Below are positions 1-7,600 of a stretch of DNA of 7,600 nt, in pieces. The stretch spans positions 1-7,600 of the IMG/VR virus record IMGVR_UViG_2529293138_000010; one strand, written 5' to 3'. Source of the stretch: a virus (taxonomy: Duplodnaviria; Heunggongvirae; Uroviricota; Caudoviricetes). The translations under genes were made by a program, and so were the position numbers. Numbering within the stretch: the stretch's first letter is position 1; the number at the start of each line of letters is the position of its first letter. Under the pieces are notes generated by a model. The model did no database searches. It was not told the DNA's origin and saw only the letters and a list, made by a program, of their open reading frames with translations.

Positions 1-1242
1 ATGGCGAGAAAAACACCCCCATTAACCACGGTGCAGATCAAAGCAGCCAGACCAGCGGAAAAGGAATACACCCTACAGGACGGCGGAGGGCTTTTTCTCC
101 TGGTCAAGCCGTCTGGATCCAAACTCTGGCGATTTTCCTACTACCGACCATCGGACAAAAAAAGAATATTGCTGAGTTTTGGATCGCTTGATGATGTTTC
201 CCTGGCTGATGCCAGAAAACGCCGTAGCGAGTACAGAGCGTTAATCAGTGCCGGAAGTGACCCGCAGGGCCATGAGAAGAAAAAACGAGAGGCAGAGGCC
301 CGAAGACAAAGGAACACGTTCGAAAATGTGGCGGCGGCATGGTACCAGGTGAAAATCAGCCAGAATCTGGCCCCCAACACTATTAAAGACATCTGGCGAT
401 CGCTGGATAAATATGTATTCCCGTTCATCGGAAACACGCCAGTAGACACCCTCACCGCCCGAAGATTCGTTGAGGTGATGACCCCCATCAAGGAGCGCGG
501 CAACCTGGAAACACTCAAGCGGGTTTTACAGCGCGTTAATGAGGTAATGGATTACGCCGCCAACAGTGGGCTGATTGATACCAATCCGGCTATGAATGTG
601 CGTAAGGCGTTCCCCTCCCCTGTAAAAAAACATATGCCAACAATCCGCCCCGAACAGCTGCCGGAGCTTATGCAGGCTTTATCAGTATCGGCAACAGAAC
701 GGCAGACCAGACTACTTATTGAGTGGCAGCTACTGACCGTAACCCGTCCCGTTGAAGCATCGTCGGCACGCTGGGAAGAAATCGACATAGAGGCGCAACG
801 CTGGACCATACCAGCCGGACGCATGAAGATGCGCCGCGACCACGTTATCCCGCTTTGTGACCAGGCTATGGCAGTGCTGGAGGCTATGAAACCAATCAGC
901 CACCACCGCGATTACGTTTTCCCGAGCCTGAAAGACCCACGGCAGCCGATGAACAGCCAGACCGCTAACGCAGCATTACGGCGCATGGGATTCGCTGGCG
1001 TGCTGGTGTCTCATGGATTACGCGCCATATTCAGCACAGCAGCGAACGAGGAAGGATTCGAGCCGGACGTAATAGAGGCGGCACTTGCCCACGTCGACAC
1101 CAACGAAGTGAGACGGGCATACAACAGGAGCAACTACATAGAAAAACGCGTGGTGCTTATGCGCTGGTGGGGCGAATTTGTCGAGGCTGCGGCGACGGGC
1201 GTAACCCTCGCCAGTGGTAAAAGGGGTATCCGAGCCGTGTAG
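1..1242 (+). CDS. int: Tyrosine-type site-specific integrase (P4/CP4-57-like prophage integrase family)
   Basis: 413-aa ORF from ATG at position 1. C-terminal catalytic signatures HGLRAIFST (box II H-x-x-R) and LAHVDTNEVRRAYNRSNY (His/Tyr nucleophile region) are typical of phage integrases; N-terminus resembles P4-type integrases. Confidence 0.9.
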   Translation: MARKTPPLTTVQIKAARPAEKEYTLQDGGGLFLLVKPSGSKLWRFSYYRPSDKKRILLSFGSLDDVSLADARKRRSEYRALISAGSDPQGHEKKKREAEARRQRNTFENVAAAWYQVKISQNLAPNTIKDIWRSLDKYVFPFIGNTPVDTLTARRFVEVMTPIKERGNLETLKRVLQRVNEVMDYAANSGLIDTNPAMNVRKAFPSPVKKHMPTIRPEQLPELMQALSVSATERQTRLLIEWQLLTVTRPVEASSARWEEIDIEAQRWTIPAGRMKMRRDHVIPLCDQAMAVLEAMKPISHHRDYVFPSLKDPRQPMNSQTANAALRRMGFAGVLVSHGLRAIFSTAANEEGFEPDVIEAALAHVDTNEVRRAYNRSNYIEKRVVLMRWWGEFVEAAATGVTLASGKRGIRAV

Positions 1243-1286
1243 CTGTACAGAAAACCAGTAAAAACTACGAAAATAATGCAAAACCG

Positions 1287-1296
1287 TTGTATAATT
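1287..1296 (+). promoter_or_regulatory. Possible extended -10-like element (TTGTATAATT) upstream of small ORF
   Basis: TATAAT at 1290-1295 preceded by TG at 1288-1289; no convincing -35. Sequence-only prediction. Confidence 0.3.
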
Positions 1297-1331
1297 GCAC
1301 TAAATTTAACGGCGCCAGCGAGGTCATGAGC

Positions 1332-1562
1332 ATGAACACATCACCCGCGACCCATTTCGATGGTTTACAACTGGCCCTGATGGTCCAACATGAATTTTGG
1401 TCAACCTACGATCCAGAGGACAGAGCGACGGCCCCAACAAAAAAAGACGTTGTTGAGTTTCTGGTATCCCGTGGGGCATCCAGGAATATGGCTGAAAGTA
1501 TCGACAGGGTAGTTCGTCCGGCAACCATGAAGACCGGAGGCAGACCAAAAAAATGGCGATAA
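1332..1562 (+). CDS. Hypothetical small protein (76 aa, basic C-terminus GGRPKKWR)
   Basis: ATG at 1332 with GAGG (1320-1323) 8 nt upstream; the ORF-track frame opens at TTG 1287. Followed directly by an intrinsic terminator. No family recognised. Confidence 0.45.
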   Translation: MNTSPATHFDGLQLALMVQHEFWSTYDPEDRATAPTKKDVVEFLVSRGASRNMAESIDRVVRPATMKTGGRPKKWR

Positions 1563-1572
1563 CAATCCTCAA

Positions 1573-1596
1573 AGCGGCAGAAATGCCGCTTTTTTT
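1573..1596 (+). terminator. Rho-independent terminator
   Basis: Stem AGCGGCA (1573-1579), loop GAAA, TGCCGCT (1584-1590), then T-run to 1596. Confidence 0.7.
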
Positions 1597-1625
1597 ATAA
1601 ATCCCTTTCAAATCACCAACATAAA

Positions 1626-1652
1626 AAACGTTTCTAACCGTTTAAAAACGGT
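1626..1652. promoter_or_regulatory. Palindromic elements upstream of alpA (possible operator or recombinase-binding sites)
   Basis: AAACGTTT palindrome (1626-1633) and perfect palindrome ACCGTTT-AA-AAACGGT (1637-1652); direct repeats CACCGGAAT/CACCGGATT at 1695-1713 lie further downstream. Confidence 0.3.
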
Positions 1653-1729
1653 GGGAACTGTTTTTACCAATATCCGATGATTTACCGTATTTCTCACCGG
1701 AATACACCGGATTAATGAGGTAAATCACG

Positions 1730-1936
1730 ATGGAAGCAATCAAAAAAGTCATCTTTCGCCAGGAAGTAAAAAAACTTATCCACATCAAGGCAAACAGCAC
1801 GCTTCAAAGCATGATCAACGCCGGAGAATTTCCGCAGGGTTTTCGCGTTGGTTTACGCCGTCGCGGATGGTATGAGGAAGACGTAATCGCATGGATGAAA
1901 GAACGTGAGCAGGAAGCACGCGAAACGGCTGCGTAA
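1730..1936 (+). CDS. alpA: AlpA-family phage transcriptional regulator / excisionase-like HTH protein
   Basis: 68-aa ORF with GAGG (1717-1720) 9 nt upstream of ATG. Sequence LIHIKANSTLQSMINAGEFPQGFRVGLRRRGWYEEDVIAWM matches the AlpA/Vis HTH pattern (…FP…G…GW.E.E…W). Confidence 0.85.
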   Translation: MEAIKKVIFRQEVKKLIHIKANSTLQSMINAGEFPQGFRVGLRRRGWYEEDVIAWMKEREQEARETAA

Positions 1937-1966
1937 TGGTGTGAGGCATAACACGATGAACATAAC

Positions 1967-1991
1967 AAAAAGCGCCCCGTTACCGGAGCGC
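1967..1991 (-). terminator. Candidate intrinsic terminator for leftward transcription (convergent with alpA)
   Basis: On the minus strand: GCGCTCC / GGTAAC loop / GGGGCGC (7-bp stem with one G-U pair) followed by TTTTT (plus-strand A-run 1967-1971). Confidence 0.4.
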
Positions 1992-2081
1992 CCTTGCGAA
2001 CAATTAACCTGCTGCGAAAAAATTGGATCAGTGCAGGGGAATTATATCAACTGTGTGAAGAAGCGCCACAATTGCCGGATA

Positions 2082-2115
2082 ACAGGCAAAACAAAGGCCA
2101 CCTGCTACGGTGGCC
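2082..2115 (-). terminator. Candidate intrinsic terminator of the leftward small-gene operon
   Basis: Perfect 7-bp stem GGCCACC (2096-2102) / GGTGGCC (2109-2115) with 6-nt loop; on the minus strand it is followed by TTTGTTTTG (2095-2087). Confidence 0.5.
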
Positions 2116-2218
2116 ATTCGACACAAGCTACACGTTATCCCCAACGCATGAGCATAACCAACAATGCCACATTTGCGGCTGGTGGGCAAAGCGTAACCGG
2201 AAAAAAATTCCGGTGGGG

Positions 2219-2344
2219 CTATTCCTGTTCTTTGTCCTTGCGTCGCTGGCGACGTTTGATCTCATGCAGAATTTTTTCAGGTAAGAATCCTGCTGATTTA
2301 TTTTCTGGTAGCAATGGTTTGTTATCCGTCTGCTTCCTGGTCAT
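2219..2344 (-). CDS. Hypothetical 41-aa peptide (MTRKQTDNKPLLPENKSAGFLPEKILHEIKRRQRRKDKEQE), basic C-terminus
   Basis: Not in the ORF track (below its length cut-off); found by manual reverse-complement translation. ATG at 2344 lies 3 nt after the stop of the upstream 60-aa ORF (TGAtgtATG), with an AAAGG SD-like motif 7 nt upstream; same frame as the two upstream minus ORFs. A CCGGAA/TTCCGG hairpin follows the stop. Confidence 0.3.
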   Translation of the reverse strand: MTRKQTDNKPLLPENKSAGFLPEKILHEIKRRQRRKDKEQE

Positions 2345-2347
2345 ACA

Positions 2348-2530
2348 TCAACCTTTTGGTTCGTTACGTTTCCATACCTGCAATGGGCGCGTTTTCCTGT
2401 ACTCTTTTAGGAATATCTCAAGAGCAAACGCACACGGTGCGAATCTTTCTGATTCATGCTCGAGCGCCATATTTTCGTGCTCTCTTTTCGTTTTTTGCGA
2501 TGGTGTATTGGTTGATTCTTTGTTGGTCAT
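2348..2530 (-). CDS. Hypothetical 60-aa protein
   Basis: Minus-strand ORF starting 58 nt downstream of the RHH-like gene, with AGGAA 7 nt upstream of ATG. No family recognised. Confidence 0.35.
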   Translation of the reverse strand: MTNKESTNTPSQKTKREHENMALEHESERFAPCAFALEIFLKEYRKTRPLQVWKRNEPKG

Positions 2531-2587
2531 TGTGTGTTCCTGTAAAGCAATGCGCCGGAGTTCCTCACACCACGGCGCTGATAGTGA

Positions 2588-2893
2588 TTATTCTGATTCT
2601 TTGGCCTTGCGGCGCTGGAGTTCTTCACGCGCGACGGTGACGAGTTGCCCGATCTCCTCGGCTGCTTTGACACCGATTTTTTCCACCTGCGCCAGTGCAT
2701 CGAGCGAAGAAACCAGGGGATTTTCTCCGCTTCCTTCTGCCTGGCGGCGGGCGATTTCACCGCGAACGGCTGTAATCACGAAAGCGGCTATTGTTTCCCC
2801 TTCCGTTTTCGAATTTTCCATTTCCTCGATTACATCATGGGGGAAGCGGATATTTTTCATTTGCGATCTGCTGTTGATGTTTCCTGTTGCCAT
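2588..2893 (-). CDS. Putative ribbon-helix-helix (Arc/MetJ/CopG-like) DNA-binding regulator; candidate island repressor
   Basis: 101-aa ORF diverging from the palindrome-rich intergenic region. N-terminal KNIRFPHDVIEEMENSKTEGETIAAFVITAV fits a beta-strand/helix/helix RHH pattern; acidic/basic helical C-terminus. True start may be the internal MKNIRF. Confidence 0.55.
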   Translation of the reverse strand: MATGNINSRSQMKNIRFPHDVIEEMENSKTEGETIAAFVITAVRGEIARRQAEGSGENPLVSSLDALAQVEKIGVKAAEEIGQLVTVAREELQRRKAKESE

Positions 2894-2910
2894 CAGAATG
2901 TCCGGTTATT

Positions 2911-3018
2911 TTGAGGTGTGTACACATTACACCAAAAGGTGTGTTGATAAAACACTTGACACTGTAGCACACTTAAATCTAATCTGTATATACACCAATT
3001 ATTGTAGTGTATATACAG
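2911..3018. promoter_or_regulatory. Divergent control region with multiple operators
   Basis: Palindrome TGTGTACACA (2917-2926); inverted repeat ACACC-AAAA-GGTGT (2929-2942); repeated ACAC/GTGT motifs; perfect 12-bp inverted repeat CTGTATATACAC (2984-2995) / GTGTATATACAG (3007-3018) separated by 11 bp. Confidence 0.55.
2956..2985 (+). promoter_or_regulatory. Predicted sigma70 promoter for the rightward (replication) operon
   Basis: Consensus -35 TTGACA (2956-2961), 18-bp spacer, -10 TAATCT (2980-2985). The 12-bp inverted repeat begins at the 3' edge of the -10 and would cover the start site. Confidence 0.45.
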
Positions 3019-3252
3019 CAACGCCCCGCAGTGGTGGTACACATGCAGGGCGTCTAACCACCAACGATAACGAGAGTATCGAGGTAGCTATGAGAAATCA
3101 TACCACACACCCGCAAGGGCGGGACTCGCACAACCTGAATAAAGCGGGTATGAAAAACCTGTTGATCGCCACTGCCAGCCAGGGCTATGATTCATGTGCA
3201 CCTCATAAAACGGGTGCCGGGATTACCACCCCGCTGATGTCCAGGGCGATAC

Positions 3253-3275
3253 AGACGCCGCACGCGTCTTTTTTT
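3253..3275 (+). terminator. Intrinsic terminator / attenuator inside the rightward leader
   Basis: Stem AGACGC (3253-3258), loop CGCAC, GCGTCT (3264-3269), followed by a T7 run (3269-3275); about 280 nt downstream of the predicted promoter and 165 nt upstream of the first strong RBS. Confidence 0.55.
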
Positions 3276-3440
3276 GTATCGGCGCACACGCACACCTTAA
3301 CAATGGTGGGCTGTACGGGGCCGACTTCGGTCTGGCTGGTCACCTTGGACGCCAGTTGTGGTAACCCTGTACAGTCCACCGCCAGCGAGATTACCACCTC
3401 CGGCGGTGGGGATATCCCAACGTCTAAGGAGGCTGCCAAC

Positions 3441-3632
3441 ATGGCTACTACCCCTACCCTTATACATTCTCAAACTGCCTTTATCTGGCGCTTTATTGCC
3501 TTTGGCGCGTCAGAATCCCAAATCATCAACGTAACCGCCTGGACAGAACGCGAAGCGCGTAACCATTGCCCGTCAGGTTGTGTCGCTGTATTTGCCGCCC
3601 GTATTCGTCAGGGGAAAACCTATGCACAATAA
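3441..3632 (+). CDS. Small protein (63 aa), possibly Icd-like (tentative, from memory of similar islands)
   Basis: Strong SD AAGGAGG (3426-3432) 8 nt upstream of ATG 3441. Sequence MATTPTLIHSQTAFIWRFIAFG…TAWTEREARNHCPSGCVAVFAARI. The frame is open upstream to 3090, so a longer form cannot be excluded. Confidence 0.5.
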   Translation: MATTPTLIHSQTAFIWRFIAFGASESQIINVTAWTEREARNHCPSGCVAVFAARIRQGKTYAQ

Positions 3633-4086
3633 AACCACACCGGACGCAGCAGCTGCCGAGCTCACTACGCTGATGCACGCGCTGATTGATATTTCTGTTA
3701 TTGCTGACAGGGCGCATAAGCACGCCACCAGTGAAACAGAATATGCATGGGCTTTCGTTCCTCATTCGCTGGCGGTTATGCAACTTAGTGCGGATATGGC
3801 GCTGAATGAGGCCAAAGCCATCCTGATTGCTGATTGTGAAAATGGGGGGGTTATGCGTGATGATCGTTTTAATTCCCTGAAACAGGAATTTTCCGGCGTA
3901 TCTGATGATGCGGCTGATGCGCTTTCGTCAATGCCAGAACTTATTAGAGCGGCTTTTTTCTTACTTTCCACGAAAGAATATAAATCAACGGGACTTGATG
4001 TACTGAATATCGCCGCCGATTATGCGGAATATGTGGCAGAGGCGCGTTACAGAAGAAAATTTCCTGAGGATGTAAGCCATGCGTGA
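3622..4086 (+). CDS. Hypothetical protein (154 aa)
   Basis: ATG 3622 with GGGGA 6 nt upstream, overlapping the previous stop by 11 nt; the ORF-track frame opens at 3580. No family recognised. Confidence 0.55.
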   Translation: MHNKTTPDAAAAELTTLMHALIDISVIADRAHKHATSETEYAWAFVPHSLAVMQLSADMALNEAKAILIADCENGGVMRDDRFNSLKQEFSGVSDDAADALSSMPELIRAAFFLLSTKEYKSTGLDVLNIAADYAEYVAEARYRRKFPEDVSHA

Positions 4087-4312
4087 TATTTACATTGAAA
4101 CAATAGACCGCGCATTTAGTGCCCTTGCTTACGCTGAAGGTATGTACGAAATATTGCAAATGTGGCTGGAAACATTTGACGATAATGAGCGTGATGTAAA
4201 GAAGGCGCGGATTATTAAATCACTGATAACTCTCCTTGAACATGTAATAACAGAGTTGCAGGAAATAGACTTATTGCACGACAGATATAACGAACAGCAC
4301 ACCGGAGAATAA
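4079..4312 (+). CDS. Hypothetical protein (77 aa, acidic)
   Basis: ATG overlaps the upstream stop (ATGCGTGA at 4079-4086), suggesting translational coupling. Confidence 0.55.
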   Translation: MRDIYIETIDRAFSALAYAEGMYEILQMWLETFDDNERDVKKARIIKSLITLLEHVITELQEIDLLHDRYNEQHTGE

Positions 4313-4317
4313 AAATA

Positions 4318-4605
4318 ATGAAACTTAAATATTCTGGCTTAACTGCCAGCGGCACCGCTCGGCCTGAAATCCGTAACGGCGATATTTACCGCGATAAATA
4401 TGGCGGCATGGTAACGATTAAAGGCGTGGCAGAACGGCGCATCACCTACCGCCGTGAAGGTTACGAATATGATTGCGTGATGCCTGTTTATCAATTCCGG
4501 CGTGATTTCACGCTGGTAGGCCAGCGTAAAGCCGTTAATCAGAAACGTGCAACAGGTTATATCCGCAAAATCCGTGAAATGCTGGTCGCAGGGGGTAAGA
4601 AATGA
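4318..4605 (+). CDS. Hypothetical small basic protein (95 aa), possibly DUF4222-like
   Basis: GGAG (4304-4307) upstream of ATG 4318; its stop overlaps the next start (ATGA at 4602-4605). Motifs YRDKYGGMVTIKGV…ITYRREGYEYDCVMP. Family assignment is from memory only. Confidence 0.55.
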   Translation: MKLKYSGLTASGTARPEIRNGDIYRDKYGGMVTIKGVAERRITYRREGYEYDCVMPVYQFRRDFTLVGQRKAVNQKRATGYIRKIREMLVAGGKK

Positions 4606-5999
4606 AACTGGCACCGAACGTAAAACGATTACCGAAAGATAAATACACCGATGCGATTATTTTTGCGGGTATTGATGCTCACTCATTCGCAGAGCATTAC
4701 ATCATTGCACAGGCCAAAAAAGCAGGCGATCCAGTCCCTCCCGTTTATCTGGGGCGTTATCAGTTAAGCGAACTGGATAACCTCCAGATTGTTGATGATG
4801 GGCGATACAGGGCGACGGTGATACGCGCCGGAAATATTGAAGAGCCGCAGCTGTTAACCATCGCCACGAAACTGGCGATCGCCGGAGTCCAGGAGGCGCG
4901 GCTACTTTCTGAAAATTTCGAATTGCTGGAGGAATGGAGCGACCAGCTTCCACGGCTTAGGGAGACATGGGAACGCGGGGAAAGCCTGAGCAACCAGCGA
5001 AAAACCACGCTACCAATGAGCGTGGGATCTGCCGGATACGACACACAACTTGATTACGTGGTTAAGGGAATTATTCCGGCTGTATCGCTTTGCAGCATAT
5101 ACGGGGCGAGCGGTTCCTATAAATCATTCCTTGCCGGATCGTGGGCGTGTCACGTTTCCACTGGCCGCCAGTGGGGATGCCGCAGGGTGGCGCATGGCGC
5201 TGTTCTCTATGTGGTTGGTGAAGGCGGTATCGGCGTTCCTCGTCGTGTAAAAGCCTGGGAGGTTGTGCACGGTGAGCAGGTGAAAAATCTGTATCTGGTA
5301 AACCGTCCCATCTTTCCGGCTGCCCCGCTTGATGTTGATGAAATGGTTATCGCTGCCCGTCAGGTGGAACGGGAAACGGGTAAACCTGTACGCATGATTA
5401 TTCTGGATACGCTGGCGCGGTGCTTTGGTGGCAATGATGAAAATGATTCCCGTGATATGGGGGCGTTTATCCGTGGGTGTGACGAACTGAAACGACGCAC
5501 AGGGGCCACGGTGCTGGTGGTTCACCATTCCGGCAAGGATGAAACAAAGGGAGCGCGTGGTTCCAGTGCATTTCGTGCTTCGCTGGATGCTGAATACCGG
5601 ATACGCAGGGAGGACGCAGGAAGCGAAGCCCTGGTTATCTCATGCACCAAAATGAAGGATGCGGAGGAACTCAAAGAAGCCGCATATGACTTACGCGTGG
5701 TGGAGCTTTTTACCGACGCTGACGGGGAGTTAATCACGTCGCTGGTGGTGGTGGATAAGCCGCGCCCTCCCGTTGAACTGGAGCGCATCGAGGAGGCTGG
5801 CAACAAGACGGAAAACCATACCGCGCTATGGGGATGCATACGTTCACGCACACAGAACGGAGACAAGTGCACGATCCCGCTGTTACGTGATGACATGAAA
5901 AAACTGGGGTACGAAATGAAAAACTTCCGGCGCTGGCTGTACAAGCTGGAAAAAGACAGGGTTATTCGTATCGATGGGGATGATGTAGCGCCGCTATAA
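4602..5999 (+). CDS. Replication-associated P-loop ATPase (RecA-fold, RepA/DnaB-like AAA_25-type helicase)
   Basis: 465-aa ORF with Walker A-like YGASGSYKSF, Walker B-like VRMIILDTLAR and downstream VLVVHHSGKD, typical of RecA-fold replicative helicases; iteron-like repeats lie immediately 3'. Confidence 0.8.
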   Translation: MKLAPNVKRLPKDKYTDAIIFAGIDAHSFAEHYIIAQAKKAGDPVPPVYLGRYQLSELDNLQIVDDGRYRATVIRAGNIEEPQLLTIATKLAIAGVQEARLLSENFELLEEWSDQLPRLRETWERGESLSNQRKTTLPMSVGSAGYDTQLDYVVKGIIPAVSLCSIYGASGSYKSFLAGSWACHVSTGRQWGCRRVAHGAVLYVVGEGGIGVPRRVKAWEVVHGEQVKNLYLVNRPIFPAAPLDVDEMVIAARQVERETGKPVRMIILDTLARCFGGNDENDSRDMGAFIRGCDELKRRTGATVLVVHHSGKDETKGARGSSAFRASLDAEYRIRREDAGSEALVISCTKMKDAEELKEAAYDLRVVELFTDADGELITSLVVVDKPRPPVELERIEEAGNKTENHTALWGCIRSRTQNGDKCTIPLLRDDMKKLGYEMKNFRRWLYKLEKDRVIRIDGDDVAPL

Positions 6000-6188
6000 A
6001 GTGAGGTGCAAAAGCGAGGGGTATAGAAGGAGGGCCAAAATTAGACCGCTACCCCTCACTTTTCGGCCTGTATACATCCTCAAAAGTGAGGGGCAAAAAA
6101 ATACTTATGAAACACACACATAGAAAAAGCGAAAATCTCAAGCGAGACGGAGCCAGACACTTTAAAAAGTGAGGCGAAAAAGTGAGAG
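5998..6188. repeat. Iteron-like repeat array (candidate origin of replication)
   Basis: AAAGTGAG(G) copies at 5998-6006, 6083-6093, 6166-6174 and 6179-6186; inverted copy at 6052-6062; variants AAAGCGAGGG at 6011-6020 and 6141-6150 region. The inverted pair CCCCTCACTTTT (6052-6063) / AAAAGTGAGGGG (6082-6093) can form a 12-bp stem. Confidence 0.5.
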
Positions 6189-6198
6189 TTTGCGAGAA

Positions 6199-6450
6199 AT
6201 GAACAAAATGCGTAGAGACAGAACAGAGCCAAAATATAAAGCGTTAGACATGACAGAGCACGCTTTAAAGGTGGCAATCAGAACGATAGACCGCCACGCG
6301 GGGGAAGGATACGCGAAGGAACATCCCGACCTGATAAGCGCATTCATGACCACAGCAGCGGCAAACTTTGCCACGCTGACAGAACGGGAGATTGCCGAAG
6401 CGGAACAGGTAACAACCATCAACGTTAAAACCGGAGAGCAGACAGCATGA
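6199..6450 (+). CDS. Hypothetical protein (83 aa)
   Basis: ORF-track frame 6169..6450 opens at a GTG inside the repeat array; first ATG is at 6199. Its stop overlaps the ssb start (ATGA at 6447-6450). Start is uncertain. Confidence 0.45.
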   Translation: MNKMRRDRTEPKYKALDMTEHALKVAIRTIDRHAGEGYAKEHPDLISAFMTTAAANFATLTEREIAEAEQVTTINVKTGEQTA

Positions 6451-6869
6451 CAGCACAGATAGCGGCTTACGGACGGCTGGTGGCTGACCCGCAGTTAAAG
6501 ACCACCAGCAAGGGTACACAAATGACGATGGCGAGTATGGCGGTCCCCCTTCCGTGCAGCCAGGCAGATGACGGAGCGGCGACGATGTGGTTATCCGTCA
6601 TGGCGTTTGGCAGACAGGCCGACGCACTGGCAAAACACCACAAAGGCGAACTGGTGAGCGTGGCGGGTAACATGCAGGTAAGCCAGTGGACAGGCCAGAA
6701 CGGCGAAACGCGGCAGGGCTGGCAGGTTATCGCAGACAGCGTAATCAGTGCGAGAACGGCGCGACCTGGCGGCAAAAAAGGCCAGCAGGGGCAGGCTACT
6801 GACGCACTGAACAGGGCAAAACAACAGGCTGGTAACGATGATCCGTATGGGGATAACATACCGTTTTAA
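6447..6869 (+). CDS. ssb: Single-stranded DNA-binding protein (SSB, OB-fold)
   Basis: Aligns by eye with E. coli SSB: GRLVADPQL…, MWLSVMAFGRQADALAKHHKGELVSVAGNMQVSQWTGQNGETRQGWQVIADSV (W/FG/KG/W-x-D-x-G-x-R pattern). Gly/Gln-rich linker and C-terminal tail DDPYGDNIPF ending in IPF. GGAGAG SD 8 nt upstream. Confidence 0.8.
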   Translation: MTAQIAAYGRLVADPQLKTTSKGTQMTMASMAVPLPCSQADDGAATMWLSVMAFGRQADALAKHHKGELVSVAGNMQVSQWTGQNGETRQGWQVIADSVISARTARPGGKKGQQGQATDALNRAKQQAGNDDPYGDNIPF

Positions 6870-6883
6870 GCAACGAGTAACAG

Positions 6884-6907
6884 AAGCCGGAGAAGTCCGG
6901 CTTTTTT
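6884..6907 (+). terminator. Rho-independent terminator ending the replication operon
   Basis: Stem GCCGGA (6886-6891), loop GAAG, TCCGGC (6896-6901), followed by T6 (6902-6907). Confidence 0.75.
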
Positions 6908-6917
6908 ATGCCCCAAA

Positions 6918-6953
6918 AAGCCCGATAAGGTCAGAGGGTCTTATCGGGCTTTT
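6918..6953. terminator. Second hairpin, possible bidirectional terminator
   Basis: 12-bp perfect stem AAGCCCGATAAG (6918-6929) / CTTATCGGGCTT (6940-6951) with 10-nt loop; A-run upstream, T-run downstream. Confidence 0.5.
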
Positions 6954-7031
6954 GCATATGAGGTTTTTTTGGTGCGCTGACACACATGATCGGGATAATA
7001 ATTTCATAATTTGCAACATAACTCAATATTA

Positions 7032-7059
7032 TTGCACAAAATGCAATCCTGATTATAAT
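7032..7059 (+). promoter_or_regulatory. Predicted promoter of the capsid module
   Basis: -35 TTGCAC (7032-7037), 16-bp spacer, consensus -10 TATAAT (7054-7059), in an AT-rich region with repeated TTGCA motifs (7011, 7032, 7042). Confidence 0.45.
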
Positions 7060-7064
7060 CATGA

Positions 7065-7080
7065 CTGGATGAACATCCAG
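7065..7080. promoter_or_regulatory. Perfect inverted repeat CTGGATG-AA-CATCCAG over the predicted start site (candidate operator)
   Basis: 7-bp arms separated by 2 bp, beginning 6 bp after the -10. Confidence 0.3.
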
Positions 7081-7115
7081 TTATGATTTTTTAAGTCGAA
7101 GAGGAATTTCTTACT

Positions 7116-7322
7116 ATGGCTGAAGAGAAAAAAGGCGGTGTTTCGGTGTACATAAGCTCCGACATCGTGGAGGCGCTCAAGGAACGCCACCAGCAGAACG
7201 TAAAAGCAGGCATTGCGGCAGGACTTGATCCGCTGGCGATGGTTGAGCCGTCAACAGGCTGGCAGGTGCGCGCCTATTTACGTGCGGCGCTGGGCATGAA
7301 TCAGACTCATGGGGGTGAATAA
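7116..7322 (+). CDS. Hypothetical small protein (68 aa), first gene of the capsid module
   Basis: GAGGAA SD (7101-7106) 9 nt upstream of ATG; its stop overlaps the capsid gene start (TAATG). No family recognised. Confidence 0.6.
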   Translation: MAEEKKGGVSVYISSDIVEALKERHQQNVKAGIAAGLDPLAMVEPSTGWQVRAYLRAALGMNQTHGGE

Positions 7323-7600
7323 TGGCAGGCAAAGCAACGGCACTTACCACTAATCAGCTTTTCACGTACATGAATCGCGGGGATATTGCGGAATTTAAAT
7401 TCAGTCCGCTGTTTACCACGCTGTTTTTCACGAACGTGGCGACATTCAGCACCCAAAACATCATGCTGGATACCCTGGACATTGAAGAAGTCACTATGTC
7501 GGCGTTTTGTTCTCCTATGGTTGGCAGCCAGGTACAGCGCGATAAAGGGTACGAAACCAGCACAATCAAACCTGGCTACATGAAGCCAAAGCACGAAATC
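7322..7600 (+). CDS. Major capsid protein, lambda gpE-like family (N-terminal 93 codons; truncated by window end)
   Basis: Manual translation MAGKATALTTNQLFTYMNRGDIAEFKFSPLFTTLFFTNVATF…KPGYMKPKHEI matches the lambda gpE N-terminus (…EQKFKFDPLFLRLFF… …PGYVKPKHEV) as recalled from memory. Confidence 0.8.
   Translation, partial: MAGKATALTTNQLFTYMNRGDIAEFKFSPLFTTLFFTNVATFSTQNIMLDTLDIEEVTMSAFCSPMVGSQVQRDKGYETSTIKPGYMKPKHEI

Follow-up and report, generated by a model that had tools for sequence, protein, structure and literature searches.

A candidate ribbon-helix-helix repressor cassette with small downstream ORFs, antisense to a long open frame, from the control region of a phage satellite of Gram-negative bacteria

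What is the role of a leftward run of three small open reading frames (ORFs) that occupies positions 2219 to 2893 of the viral record IMGVR_UViG_2529293138_000010? The DNA analyzed here comprises positions 1 to 7,600 of this record (hereafter the window; 7,600 nucleotides (nt)), and its genes are arranged in the order int, alpA, three-ORF module, P4-like RNA immunity region, helicase and SSB (single-stranded DNA-binding protein). The window covers the left part, with early control, of a phage satellite from Gram-negative bacteria, which is of the phage-inducible chromosomal island (PICI) or capsid-forming PICI (cf-PICI) type. A preliminary description of the module had named several possible functions, including a repressor/immunity module, a toxin-antitoxin pair with a ribbon-helix-helix (RHH) antitoxin, and a compact accessory function carried in a variable slot. 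On the basis of comparisons among related loci, we favor with moderate confidence a reading in which ORF1 is an RHH repressor with its own sites, ORF2 is an independent rider, and ORF3 is an add-on derived from part of an RHH gene. The three ORFs are as follows.

2588-2893, minus strand: ORF1, a putative satellite repressor of 101 amino acids (aa), with a predicted N-terminal RHH followed by a long C-terminal helix
2348-2530, minus strand: ORF2 ('S60'), 60 aa, with a Shine-Dalgarno (SD) sequence AGGA 7 nt ahead of its ATG
2219-2344, minus strand: ORF3 ('S41'), 41 aa, whose start lies 3 nt past the ORF2 stop

The list of ORFs in the window agrees with the earlier account of three ORFs in a single minus-strand frame and with the junction TGA tgt ATG between ORF2 and ORF3; the gap between ORF1 and ORF2 is 57 nt (2531-2587) rather than the 58 nt first given. 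Because the window holds 86 ORFs of at least 30 aa, the mere existence of such ORFs proves little, and the chance of same-frame placement of three ORFs is 1 in 9. It is the comparative data that raise ORF1 and ORF2 clearly above chance, and ORF3 in part. In RefSeq, a 91%-identical E. coli locus has all three annotated, one as a YlcI/YnfO protein (WP_063100535) and the others as hypothetical proteins (WP_187143834 and WP_000197232).

The main basis for the role that we propose for ORF1 is that RHH alleles and upstream repeat sets co-vary. In 85 loci collected with ORF2 as the anchor, the slot whose gene stops 57 nt ahead of ORF2 holds at least 12 RHH forms in E. coli, including the long YlcI form, many short YlcI forms (59-65 aa, with differing beta-strands) and three Arc-like forms (57-63 aa). 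Every RHH form is accompanied by its own motif of roughly 10-13 bp, present in 2-5 copies less than about 120 nt upstream of the start, at offsets of ~104, 79 and 30 nt. The repeats of the window and of representative alleles, the last of which is Arc-like, are listed here.

2915-3017: operator-like repeats upstream of ORF1, namely GGTGTGTACACA at 2915-2926, GTGTTGATAAAACAC at 2941-2955, and two copies of TGTATATACA at 2985-2994 and 3008-3017, 23 bp apart
Window allele: motif TGTATATACA plus TGTGTACACA, 2 + 1 copies
L016 allele: motif TGTGCGCACA, 3 copies
L066 allele: motif GTGTTGAACAC, 3 copies
L041 allele: motif GTCAGCCAC, 3 copies
L026 allele: motif GGTGTATTTCACC, 3 copies
L039 allele (Arc-like): motif GGTAATTACC, 3 copies

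Furthermore, resemblance between beta-strands goes along with resemblance between motifs: KN(I/V)R strands pair with GTGT(G/A)TAT sites and TTVR strands pair with GGTGT(G/A)TTTC, and this match between strand and motif is also seen in loci from Xenorhabdus, Photorhabdus, Pantoea and Lelliottia. Such co-variation is as expected of a repressor and its operators, and the RHH gene and its putative operators are most likely exchanged together as a cassette. ORF1 is therefore most likely an autoregulated, immunity-type repressor, and the repressor/immunity module is the option among those initially raised that fits best, given that RHH alleles are swapped along with their own upstream repeat sets.

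The repeats also appear to be interspersed with promoter elements, and they are followed by a conserved hairpin.

2956-2985, plus strand: candidate rightward promoter TTGACA-18-TAATCT, read from the sequence
3021-3053: GC-rich hairpin ACGCCCCGCA...TGCAGGGCGT, an inverted repeat between the putative operators and the eta-like start, conserved across alleles

The predicted start of the candidate rightward promoter, which scores below the promoter-scan threshold, falls within the first TGTATATACA palindrome. All RHH alleles examined have a plus-strand TTGAC box among their repeats, and most short YlcI alleles also have a minus-strand TATACT box there, an arrangement that suggests back-to-back promoters among the repeats. 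In most alleles, the hairpin at 3021-3053 is followed on the minus strand by a T-rich run.

What kind of protein, then, is ORF1? It matches the NCBIfam model YlcI/YnfO_N (NF041551) with 64.2 bits (E 8e-18; residues 9-50 against the full model, 1-42), compared with a curated cutoff of 30 bits, and its RefSeq homologues carry the same name, so that ORF1 belongs to the YlcI/YnfO family. It also aligns end to end with phrog_6522 (E 9e-49). Homologues of ~101 aa (n=139) are spread across the Enterobacterales, with representatives in Escherichia, Salmonella, Citrobacter, Klebsiella, Enterobacter, Yersinia, Serratia, Erwinia and Cronobacter, and ten further loci were found in Xenorhabdus, Photorhabdus, Pantoea, Lelliottia, Phytobacter, Enterobacter soli and a record labelled Martelella alba. 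In 10/10 of these loci from other genera, and also in E. coli, the ORF1 homologue is divergent from an Icd-like/DUF4222/primase operon. The family in turn can be linked by hhalign, through short, low-probability alignments, to Arc-like alleles of the same slot (E 1.6e-4) and to P22 Arc (E 1.8e-3), and an alignment of the same kind joins the Arc-like alleles to P22 Arc (E 1.2e-4). One Arc-like allele matches phrog_228, 'Arc-like repressor' (E 1.5e-6), and the Pfam models Arc and PSK_trans_fac match ORF1 only below threshold. These links to Arc are weak but consistent, and together with the NCBIfam score they bear out the first impression that ORF1 is RHH-like; we accept the RHH assignment at the level of sequence. 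A match of ORF1 to Csy2 (Pfam/TIGRFAM), with a score far below cutoff, was set aside as noise.

ORF1 overlaps a long frame on the opposite strand (described below). The ratio of nonsynonymous to synonymous polymorphism (pN/pS) for ORF1 is 0.30-0.35 in its own frame and 0.42-0.48 in the overlapping antisense frame, a 1.4-fold difference. Moreover, the YlcI of E. coli K-12 stands alone, without a long antisense ORF, and the YlcI family is therefore real independently of the overlap seen here. The AlphaFold2 (AF2) model of ORF1 (predicted local distance difference test (pLDDT) 82) has helices at residues 19-28, 35-55 and 59-100 and an unstructured N-terminus.

ORF2 presents a different case. Its 25 protein clusters (57-67 aa) come from E. 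coli only, where a source is named, and share the conserved core EHESERFAPCAFALExFLKEY, flanked by a variable N-terminal segment and a variable C-terminal tail. A profile search of 1.84 billion representatives returned 9 matches only, one of which, a repetitive 1141-aa protein, we regard as spurious. ORF2 matches the unnamed family phrog_21027 (E 6e-14), has no match in Pfam, NCBIfam, PADLOC or PDB sequences, and gave no tblastn match in a phage collection. Nevertheless, the comparative data mark it as a real, narrowly distributed orphan gene. Over 29 distinct DNA sequences, pN/pS of the core is 0.15 in its own frame, 0.28 in the antisense frame that shares its third codon positions, and above 1 in the four other frames. 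This 1.9-fold gap between own and antisense frame at least matches those of the bona fide genes YlcI (1.4-fold) and Icd (1.2-fold; 0.48 versus 0.56), which argues that ORF2 is a true minus-strand gene. An identical 57-aa ORF2 protein is encoded by nine distinct DNA sequences, and the SD sequence, the ATG and the 57-nt upstream spacer are all conserved. The AF2 model predicts a single helix (residues 26-47) with disordered tails.

The gene order invites comparison with type II toxin-antitoxin operons, in which ORF1 would act as antitoxin and autorepressor and ORF2, possibly with ORF3, as a toxin that stabilizes the island or aborts infection. Like RHH-type operons of this kind, the module places the RHH gene first and a small ORF second, with tight spacing and palindromes resembling those of autoregulated operons; the Foldseek matches of ORF1 include the RHH antitoxins KacA and MazE, none significantly; and the pair of RHH gene and small ORF is duplicated in tandem in some loci. 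However, the same 57-aa ORF2 follows long-YlcI, short-YlcI and Arc-like alleles, three unrelated RHH classes, with no co-variation, and the ten loci from other genera carry the RHH gene without ORF2. As a consequence, ORF2 is not a cognate partner of the RHH protein and a toxin-antitoxin function is unlikely. Furthermore, the 57-59 aa alleles have a tail of only ~10 residues past the RHH, leaving almost no room for toxin binding, while ORF2 itself is predicted to be one helix plus disorder and matches no toxin or defence model in the databases named above. Neither a downstream gene from a toxin family nor co-occurrence and co-variation of cognate partners was found, and we consider this option, which the preliminary description had raised, highly improbable.

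A tandem arrangement is seen in L020, L022, L023 and L029 (about 2000-3200), where the order is RHH, a 75-aa ORF (MTNNTLSPIQ...FALEDFVDKYPRRLKSGKNRPPG), RHH and ORF2. The 75-aa ORF and ORF2 have an MTN start and a FALExF motif in common, and the similarity between them is weak (pairwise E 0.019).

Alternatively, ORF2 and ORF3 might be accessory proteins directed at the helper phage or the host (interference, anti-repressor or exclusion) that simply travel in the repressor operon and are thereby made while the island is quiescent. This explanation overlaps with the one we prefer and adds to it a specific anti-phage or helper-manipulating role. It would suit the variability of the zone between alpA and the immunity region, which in other loci holds BRO-N genes, 310-aa ORFs or a hydrophobic fourth ORF and has been called dynamic (PMC10111431). 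Small single-helix proteins typically act through partner binding, and ORF2 is found only in E. coli-type sequences. Against this, ORF2 is a constant element rather than variable cargo: ~1,600 of 5,426 complete E. coli genomes match the module stretch, mostly over ORF2 and the spacer, and neither PADLOC nor the phage collection holds a match to ORF2. The added role therefore strikes us as unlikely, though far from negligible. The earlier picture of a variable slot survives for ORF3 and the sequence beyond it, which differ between loci, and fails for ORF2.

ORF3 forms only two clusters, with the window allele also present in L002 and L018 and a second allele in L017 and L032. Residues 13-41 (29 aa) share 59% identity with the C-terminal half of one of the short YlcI alleles (E 2e-9), over helix 2 and the RRQRRKxKExE tail, and for this reason ORF3 resembles an incomplete RHH gene copy to which a new N-terminus has been joined. 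Codons 1-24 of the two alleles differ at five positions, all third positions and all synonymous, a pattern that points to constraint on one strand or the other. No match to ORF3 was found in Pfam, NCBIfam, PADLOC, PDB or PHROGs. We regard ORF3 as probably, but not securely, a gene. In L017 and L032 (about 3320 onward), a hydrophobic fourth ORF, MHQILYWLGSLFVFAFLMKYC..., begins 4 nt past the stop of the second ORF3 allele; this ORF is absent from the window.

A further question is posed by the opposite strand, where the three ORFs lie antisense within one much longer frame, absent from the preliminary description, that ends in the P4-like immunity region.

1956-3632, plus strand: long read-through ORF, 558 aa from its ATG, with an SD sequence GAGG, 20 nt past the alpA stop
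3090-3632, plus strand: eta-like ORF, 180 aa, with an SD sequence GAGG; matches phrog_29966 end to end (E 1e-93)
3162-3191, plus strand: promoter-like site TTGATC-18-TATGAT, internal to the eta-like ORF, from a promoter scan
3198-3274, plus strand: isrK/seqA-like RNA (Rfam isrK, 65 bits; cutoff 50)
3299-3386, plus strand: C4/CI-like RNA (Rfam C4, 69.6 bits; cutoff 45)
3441-3632, plus strand: Icd/Kil-like ORF, nested at the end of the eta-like ORF, with an SD sequence AAGGAGG

The Pfam model Phage_ASH matches the eta-like translation over the isrK/C4 region (E 2.6e-9), and the C4 loop has a segment (3350-3367) with complementarity to two sites, at 3219-3229 and 3387-3405. The region has the composition of a P4-type RNA immunity unit, with a C4 RNA and flanking target sites, and with a Kil-like ORF nested in an eta frame that reaches alpA.

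The plus frame is open over 1899-3632, from the last alpA codons to the Icd-like stop, for 578 codons without a stop; the other two plus frames contain 25 and 27 stops over the same interval. It is antisense to ORF3, ORF2 and ORF1, with third codon positions in common, and extends 378 codons upstream of the eta-like start at 3090, where its translation matches no family. Our first reading, that the long ORF is a compositional shadow, was dropped after comparison across loci. The relation of plus and minus frames recurs in about 56 of 80 loci, and in 52 of these, representing 8 of 12 allele types, the plus frame is open across the RHH gene and ORF2. In some sampled loci the frame leading to icd is broken, and several of these keep an ORF of 220-460 codons that has its own SD sequence and ATG after alpA, crosses the antisense operon and ends beside the eta/icd start. 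When synonymous codons of the three minus-strand ORFs were resampled, the plus ORF stayed open in 9-30% of trials, which alone is not significant. Judging from the loci taken together, the plus frame is probably kept open by selection, either as one ORF or as abutting ORFs. No mechanism could be tied to the shared frame of the three minus-strand ORFs, and the plus ORF alone does not require it.

Could the long plus ORF be the only functional element, with ORF2 and ORF3 being shadow ORFs that stay open through the common third codon positions? A plus ORF of 220-578 codons with its own SD sequence and ATG after alpA is present in most related loci, the substitution pattern of ORF3 is the same in both frames, and in O157-type genomes the Prokaryotic Genome Annotation Pipeline (PGAP) places its call over ORF2 on the plus strand. 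Yet the ORF2 core is the more conserved in its own frame, its start and SD sequence are maintained, ORF3 shows homology to YlcI when read in the minus frame, the genes for ORF1 and the alleles that replace it on this strand are clearly genuine, and the plus-strand translation upstream of 3090 lacks any family. This alternative is improbable in our judgment.

In P4, eta starts after an alpA homologue, the CI RNA and a promoter both lie inside eta, and its translation is required for transcription read-through and prevents Rho-dependent termination (PMC10111431). By analogy, the open frame in the window may serve for anti-termination by translation. We advance only tentatively the proposal that the operon is nested antisense in a plus ORF selected for openness, and that read-through following helper-induced alpA overrides both RHH and C4 immunity. 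Specifically, a helper phage would switch on alpA transcription, ribosomes would trail RNA polymerase through the frame beginning at 1956, and these ribosomes would protect the transcript against Rho, in the manner of P4 eta. Read-through transcription would then override the RHH and C4-RNA immunity layers and, being convergent with the repressor operon, would silence it. The amino-acid sequence of the ~380-codon extension would be irrelevant under this model, with openness alone being selected.

A similar overlap is seen in L095 (Pasteurella phage Pmp7, a 10.7-kb satellite-sized record), where at 4435-5109 an N-terminal YlcI-like match, with 37% identity over 53 aa, lies antisense within an annotated 224-aa 'transcriptional repressor' gene.

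For the module itself, the sequence leads us to infer that ORF1 binds DNA and represses, where the promoters lie, and what ORF2 and ORF3 do, as follows. ORF1 would be transcribed leftward from a promoter within the 196-bp region that it has in common with the rightward eta/icd operon, and a dimer or higher oligomer of ORF1 would most likely bind the palindromes at 2915-3017, thereby repressing its own promoter and the back-to-back rightward promoter. If left unrepressed, the rightward promoter would give translated eta transcripts that are insensitive to immunity, and thus ORF1 repression would constitute a protein layer above the C4/CI-like RNA immunity. The ORF1 gene and its sites would form an allele-specific cassette, like an immunity type. 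ORF2 would be co-transcribed behind the repressor, independently of repressor specificity, and would most likely bind a partner shared by all these islands, or by their host or helper phage, rather than being a toxin neutralized by ORF1. ORF3 would be an occasional add-on derived from an incomplete copy of one of the short RHH alleles.

Several observations weigh against this scheme. First, the AF2 monomer of ORF1 has two helices where expected but no beta-strand, although the strand may form only in the dimer, and the top Foldseek matches (Arc, CopG, AmrZ, CdbA and NikA) are RHH proteins, none of them significant (E >=0.9). Second, the promoter scan detected no consensus sigma-70 promoter for the leftward operon in the window allele. 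Third, the first 21 codons of ORF2 are nearly neutral (pN/pS 0.81), and the five changes in ORF3 are equally synonymous in the overlapping plus frame, so that its coding signal is not assignable to a strand. Fourth, no homologues of known function were found for ORF2 or ORF3, and the searchable literature holds no functional description of YlcI/YnfO or of this operon; it is likewise silent on the operon with respect to PICIs with RHH, Icd or C4. Finally, published work describes PICI induction in Gram-negative hosts as dependent on AlpA and describes no repressor. The 'repressor' of the island EcCIMP1 is of another kind, a PerC/ANR-like protein encoded at a different place in EcCIMP1.

Where would transcripts of the leftward operon end, and could they be processed? 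The following elements bear on this question.

2552-2578, minus strand: conserved GC-rich hairpin within the spacer that separates ORF1 from ORF2, with AUUGCUUUAC after it; may act in attenuation or processing
2196-2214, minus strand: hairpin directly 3' of ORF3, ACCGGAA-UUUUU-UUCCGGU, whose loop holds U5 and which lacks a U tail
2115-2096, minus strand: canonical intrinsic terminator of the leftward operon, GGCCACC-GUAGCA-GGUGGCC + UUUGUUUUG, from a terminator scan and centroid structure
1995-1968, minus strand: second terminator-like hairpin and T run, just before the alpA 3' end, from a terminator scan

The preliminary description had the operon end at a hairpin plus U-tract. A hairpin does follow ORF3, but its U run forms the loop and not a tail, and the canonical terminator lies ~100 nt farther on, with a weak, sub-threshold match to an isrD-like Rfam family. 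The 57-nt spacer is nearly invariant behind all RHH alleles, and the consensus fold of its hairpin has a predicted energy of -12.7 kcal/mol; across alleles, this fold has no real covariation support. The spacer hairpin may attenuate or process the transcript.

How does this arrangement compare with known systems? The closest parallel for ORF1 is the immI region of phage P22, an accessory immunity region where the small RHH proteins Arc and Mnt bind operators, repeated or palindromic, that lie between divergent promoters, as is predicted for ORF1; the Arc-like alleles of the slot extend the likeness, through both their alignment to Arc and their match to the PHROG 'Arc-like repressor'. In contrast to P22 immI, the RHH gene here is followed by a 60-aa orphan with no antirepressor gene, and it faces an operon that is an RNA immunity unit of the P4/P1 type. 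In addition, the window allele carries an extra 45-residue C-terminal helix.

The immunity region of P4 (PLL/PLE, eta with nested kil, CI RNA, seqA/seqC) resembles the window in that the RNAs lie inside an eta-like ORF with a C-terminal Kil/Icd-like ORF, a promoter-like site is internal to it, and the open frame starts right after the alpA (vis) homologue. P4 is not known to have a gene antisense to eta, whereas in the window the frame extends over 558 codons, opposite a leftward operon of three genes that encodes an RHH regulator. The P1/P7 immI region (c4 antisense RNA - icd - ant) resembles the window in carrying an RNA of the Rfam C4 family and, behind it, a first ORF that is Icd-like and has a strong SD sequence. 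Transcription of P1 immI is controlled by the C1 repressor, not by an RHH protein, and an ant homologue was not found in the window.

Two proteins of E. coli K-12, YlcI (prophage DLP12) and YnfO (prophage Qin), belong to the same NCBIfam family as ORF1 and have a similar beta-strand (TRNIRFP versus MKNIRFP) and, in common with one slot allele, an NFSAWV helix. YnfO is 77 aa long; YlcI, of 64 aa, is encoded beside the terminase (nohD) region of a lambdoid prophage rather than in a satellite control region, and has neither an ORF2-like partner nor a long antisense ORF. The Stl repressor of Staphylococcus aureus pathogenicity islands (SaPIs) offers a functional analogy only, as a repressor that is divergent from a satellite replication operon and has many specificity variants. 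Stl is a larger helix-turn-helix protein that is relieved by helper-phage proteins; it is not homologous to ORF1, and induction of Gram-negative PICIs is reported to proceed via AlpA.

For Gram-negative PICIs and cf-PICIs, those of the O157 type included, AlpA induction without a repressor is thus what the searchable literature contains, and a diversified RHH gene with matching putative operators opposite the replication operon is a candidate for the missing control layer. Such an RHH cassette could underlie 'immunity types' among co-resident satellites. The three genes as such are already known from some RefSeq genomes, as 'YlcI/YnfO family' or 'hypothetical' proteins. What is new, relative to known control modules of phages and satellites, is their combination: an RHH/operator cassette that can be swapped, a small rider gene that stays constant, RNA immunity like that of P4, and antisense nesting in a read-through ORF. 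Should the nesting prove functional, it would be a compact case of gene overlap where selection on one of the partners acts only to keep it open.

Current annotation of these loci is inconsistent. In two O157/O26-type islands next to roxA, PGAP calls plus-strand pseudogenes, both marked incomplete and named 'Icd-like' in L003 (3783-4376) and 'hypothetical' in L004 (3783-4230). ORF2 is unannotated in both islands, as is the Arc-like RHH gene in L003, while the short YlcI/YnfO gene is annotated in L004. In other genomes the situation is reversed.

Of the remaining features of the window, the following lie to the left of the module.

1-1242: tyrosine integrase, at the left end of the window
1730-1936: AlpA-like gene, between int and the three-ORF module

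Downstream of the C4 RNA are the Icd-like ORF, DUF4222, an AAA_25/RepA-type helicase and SSB. Among related islands of E. coli, some have capsid genes and others are inserted inside a prophage terminase gene, and they correspond to the cf-PICI and helper-embedded PICI types. Between int and alpA lies a 91-aa ORF (1287-1562, plus strand) without a family match, and the 168-aa and 77-aa ORFs that follow icd (3580-4312, plus strand) correspond to the unnamed PHROGs 2512 and 2196.

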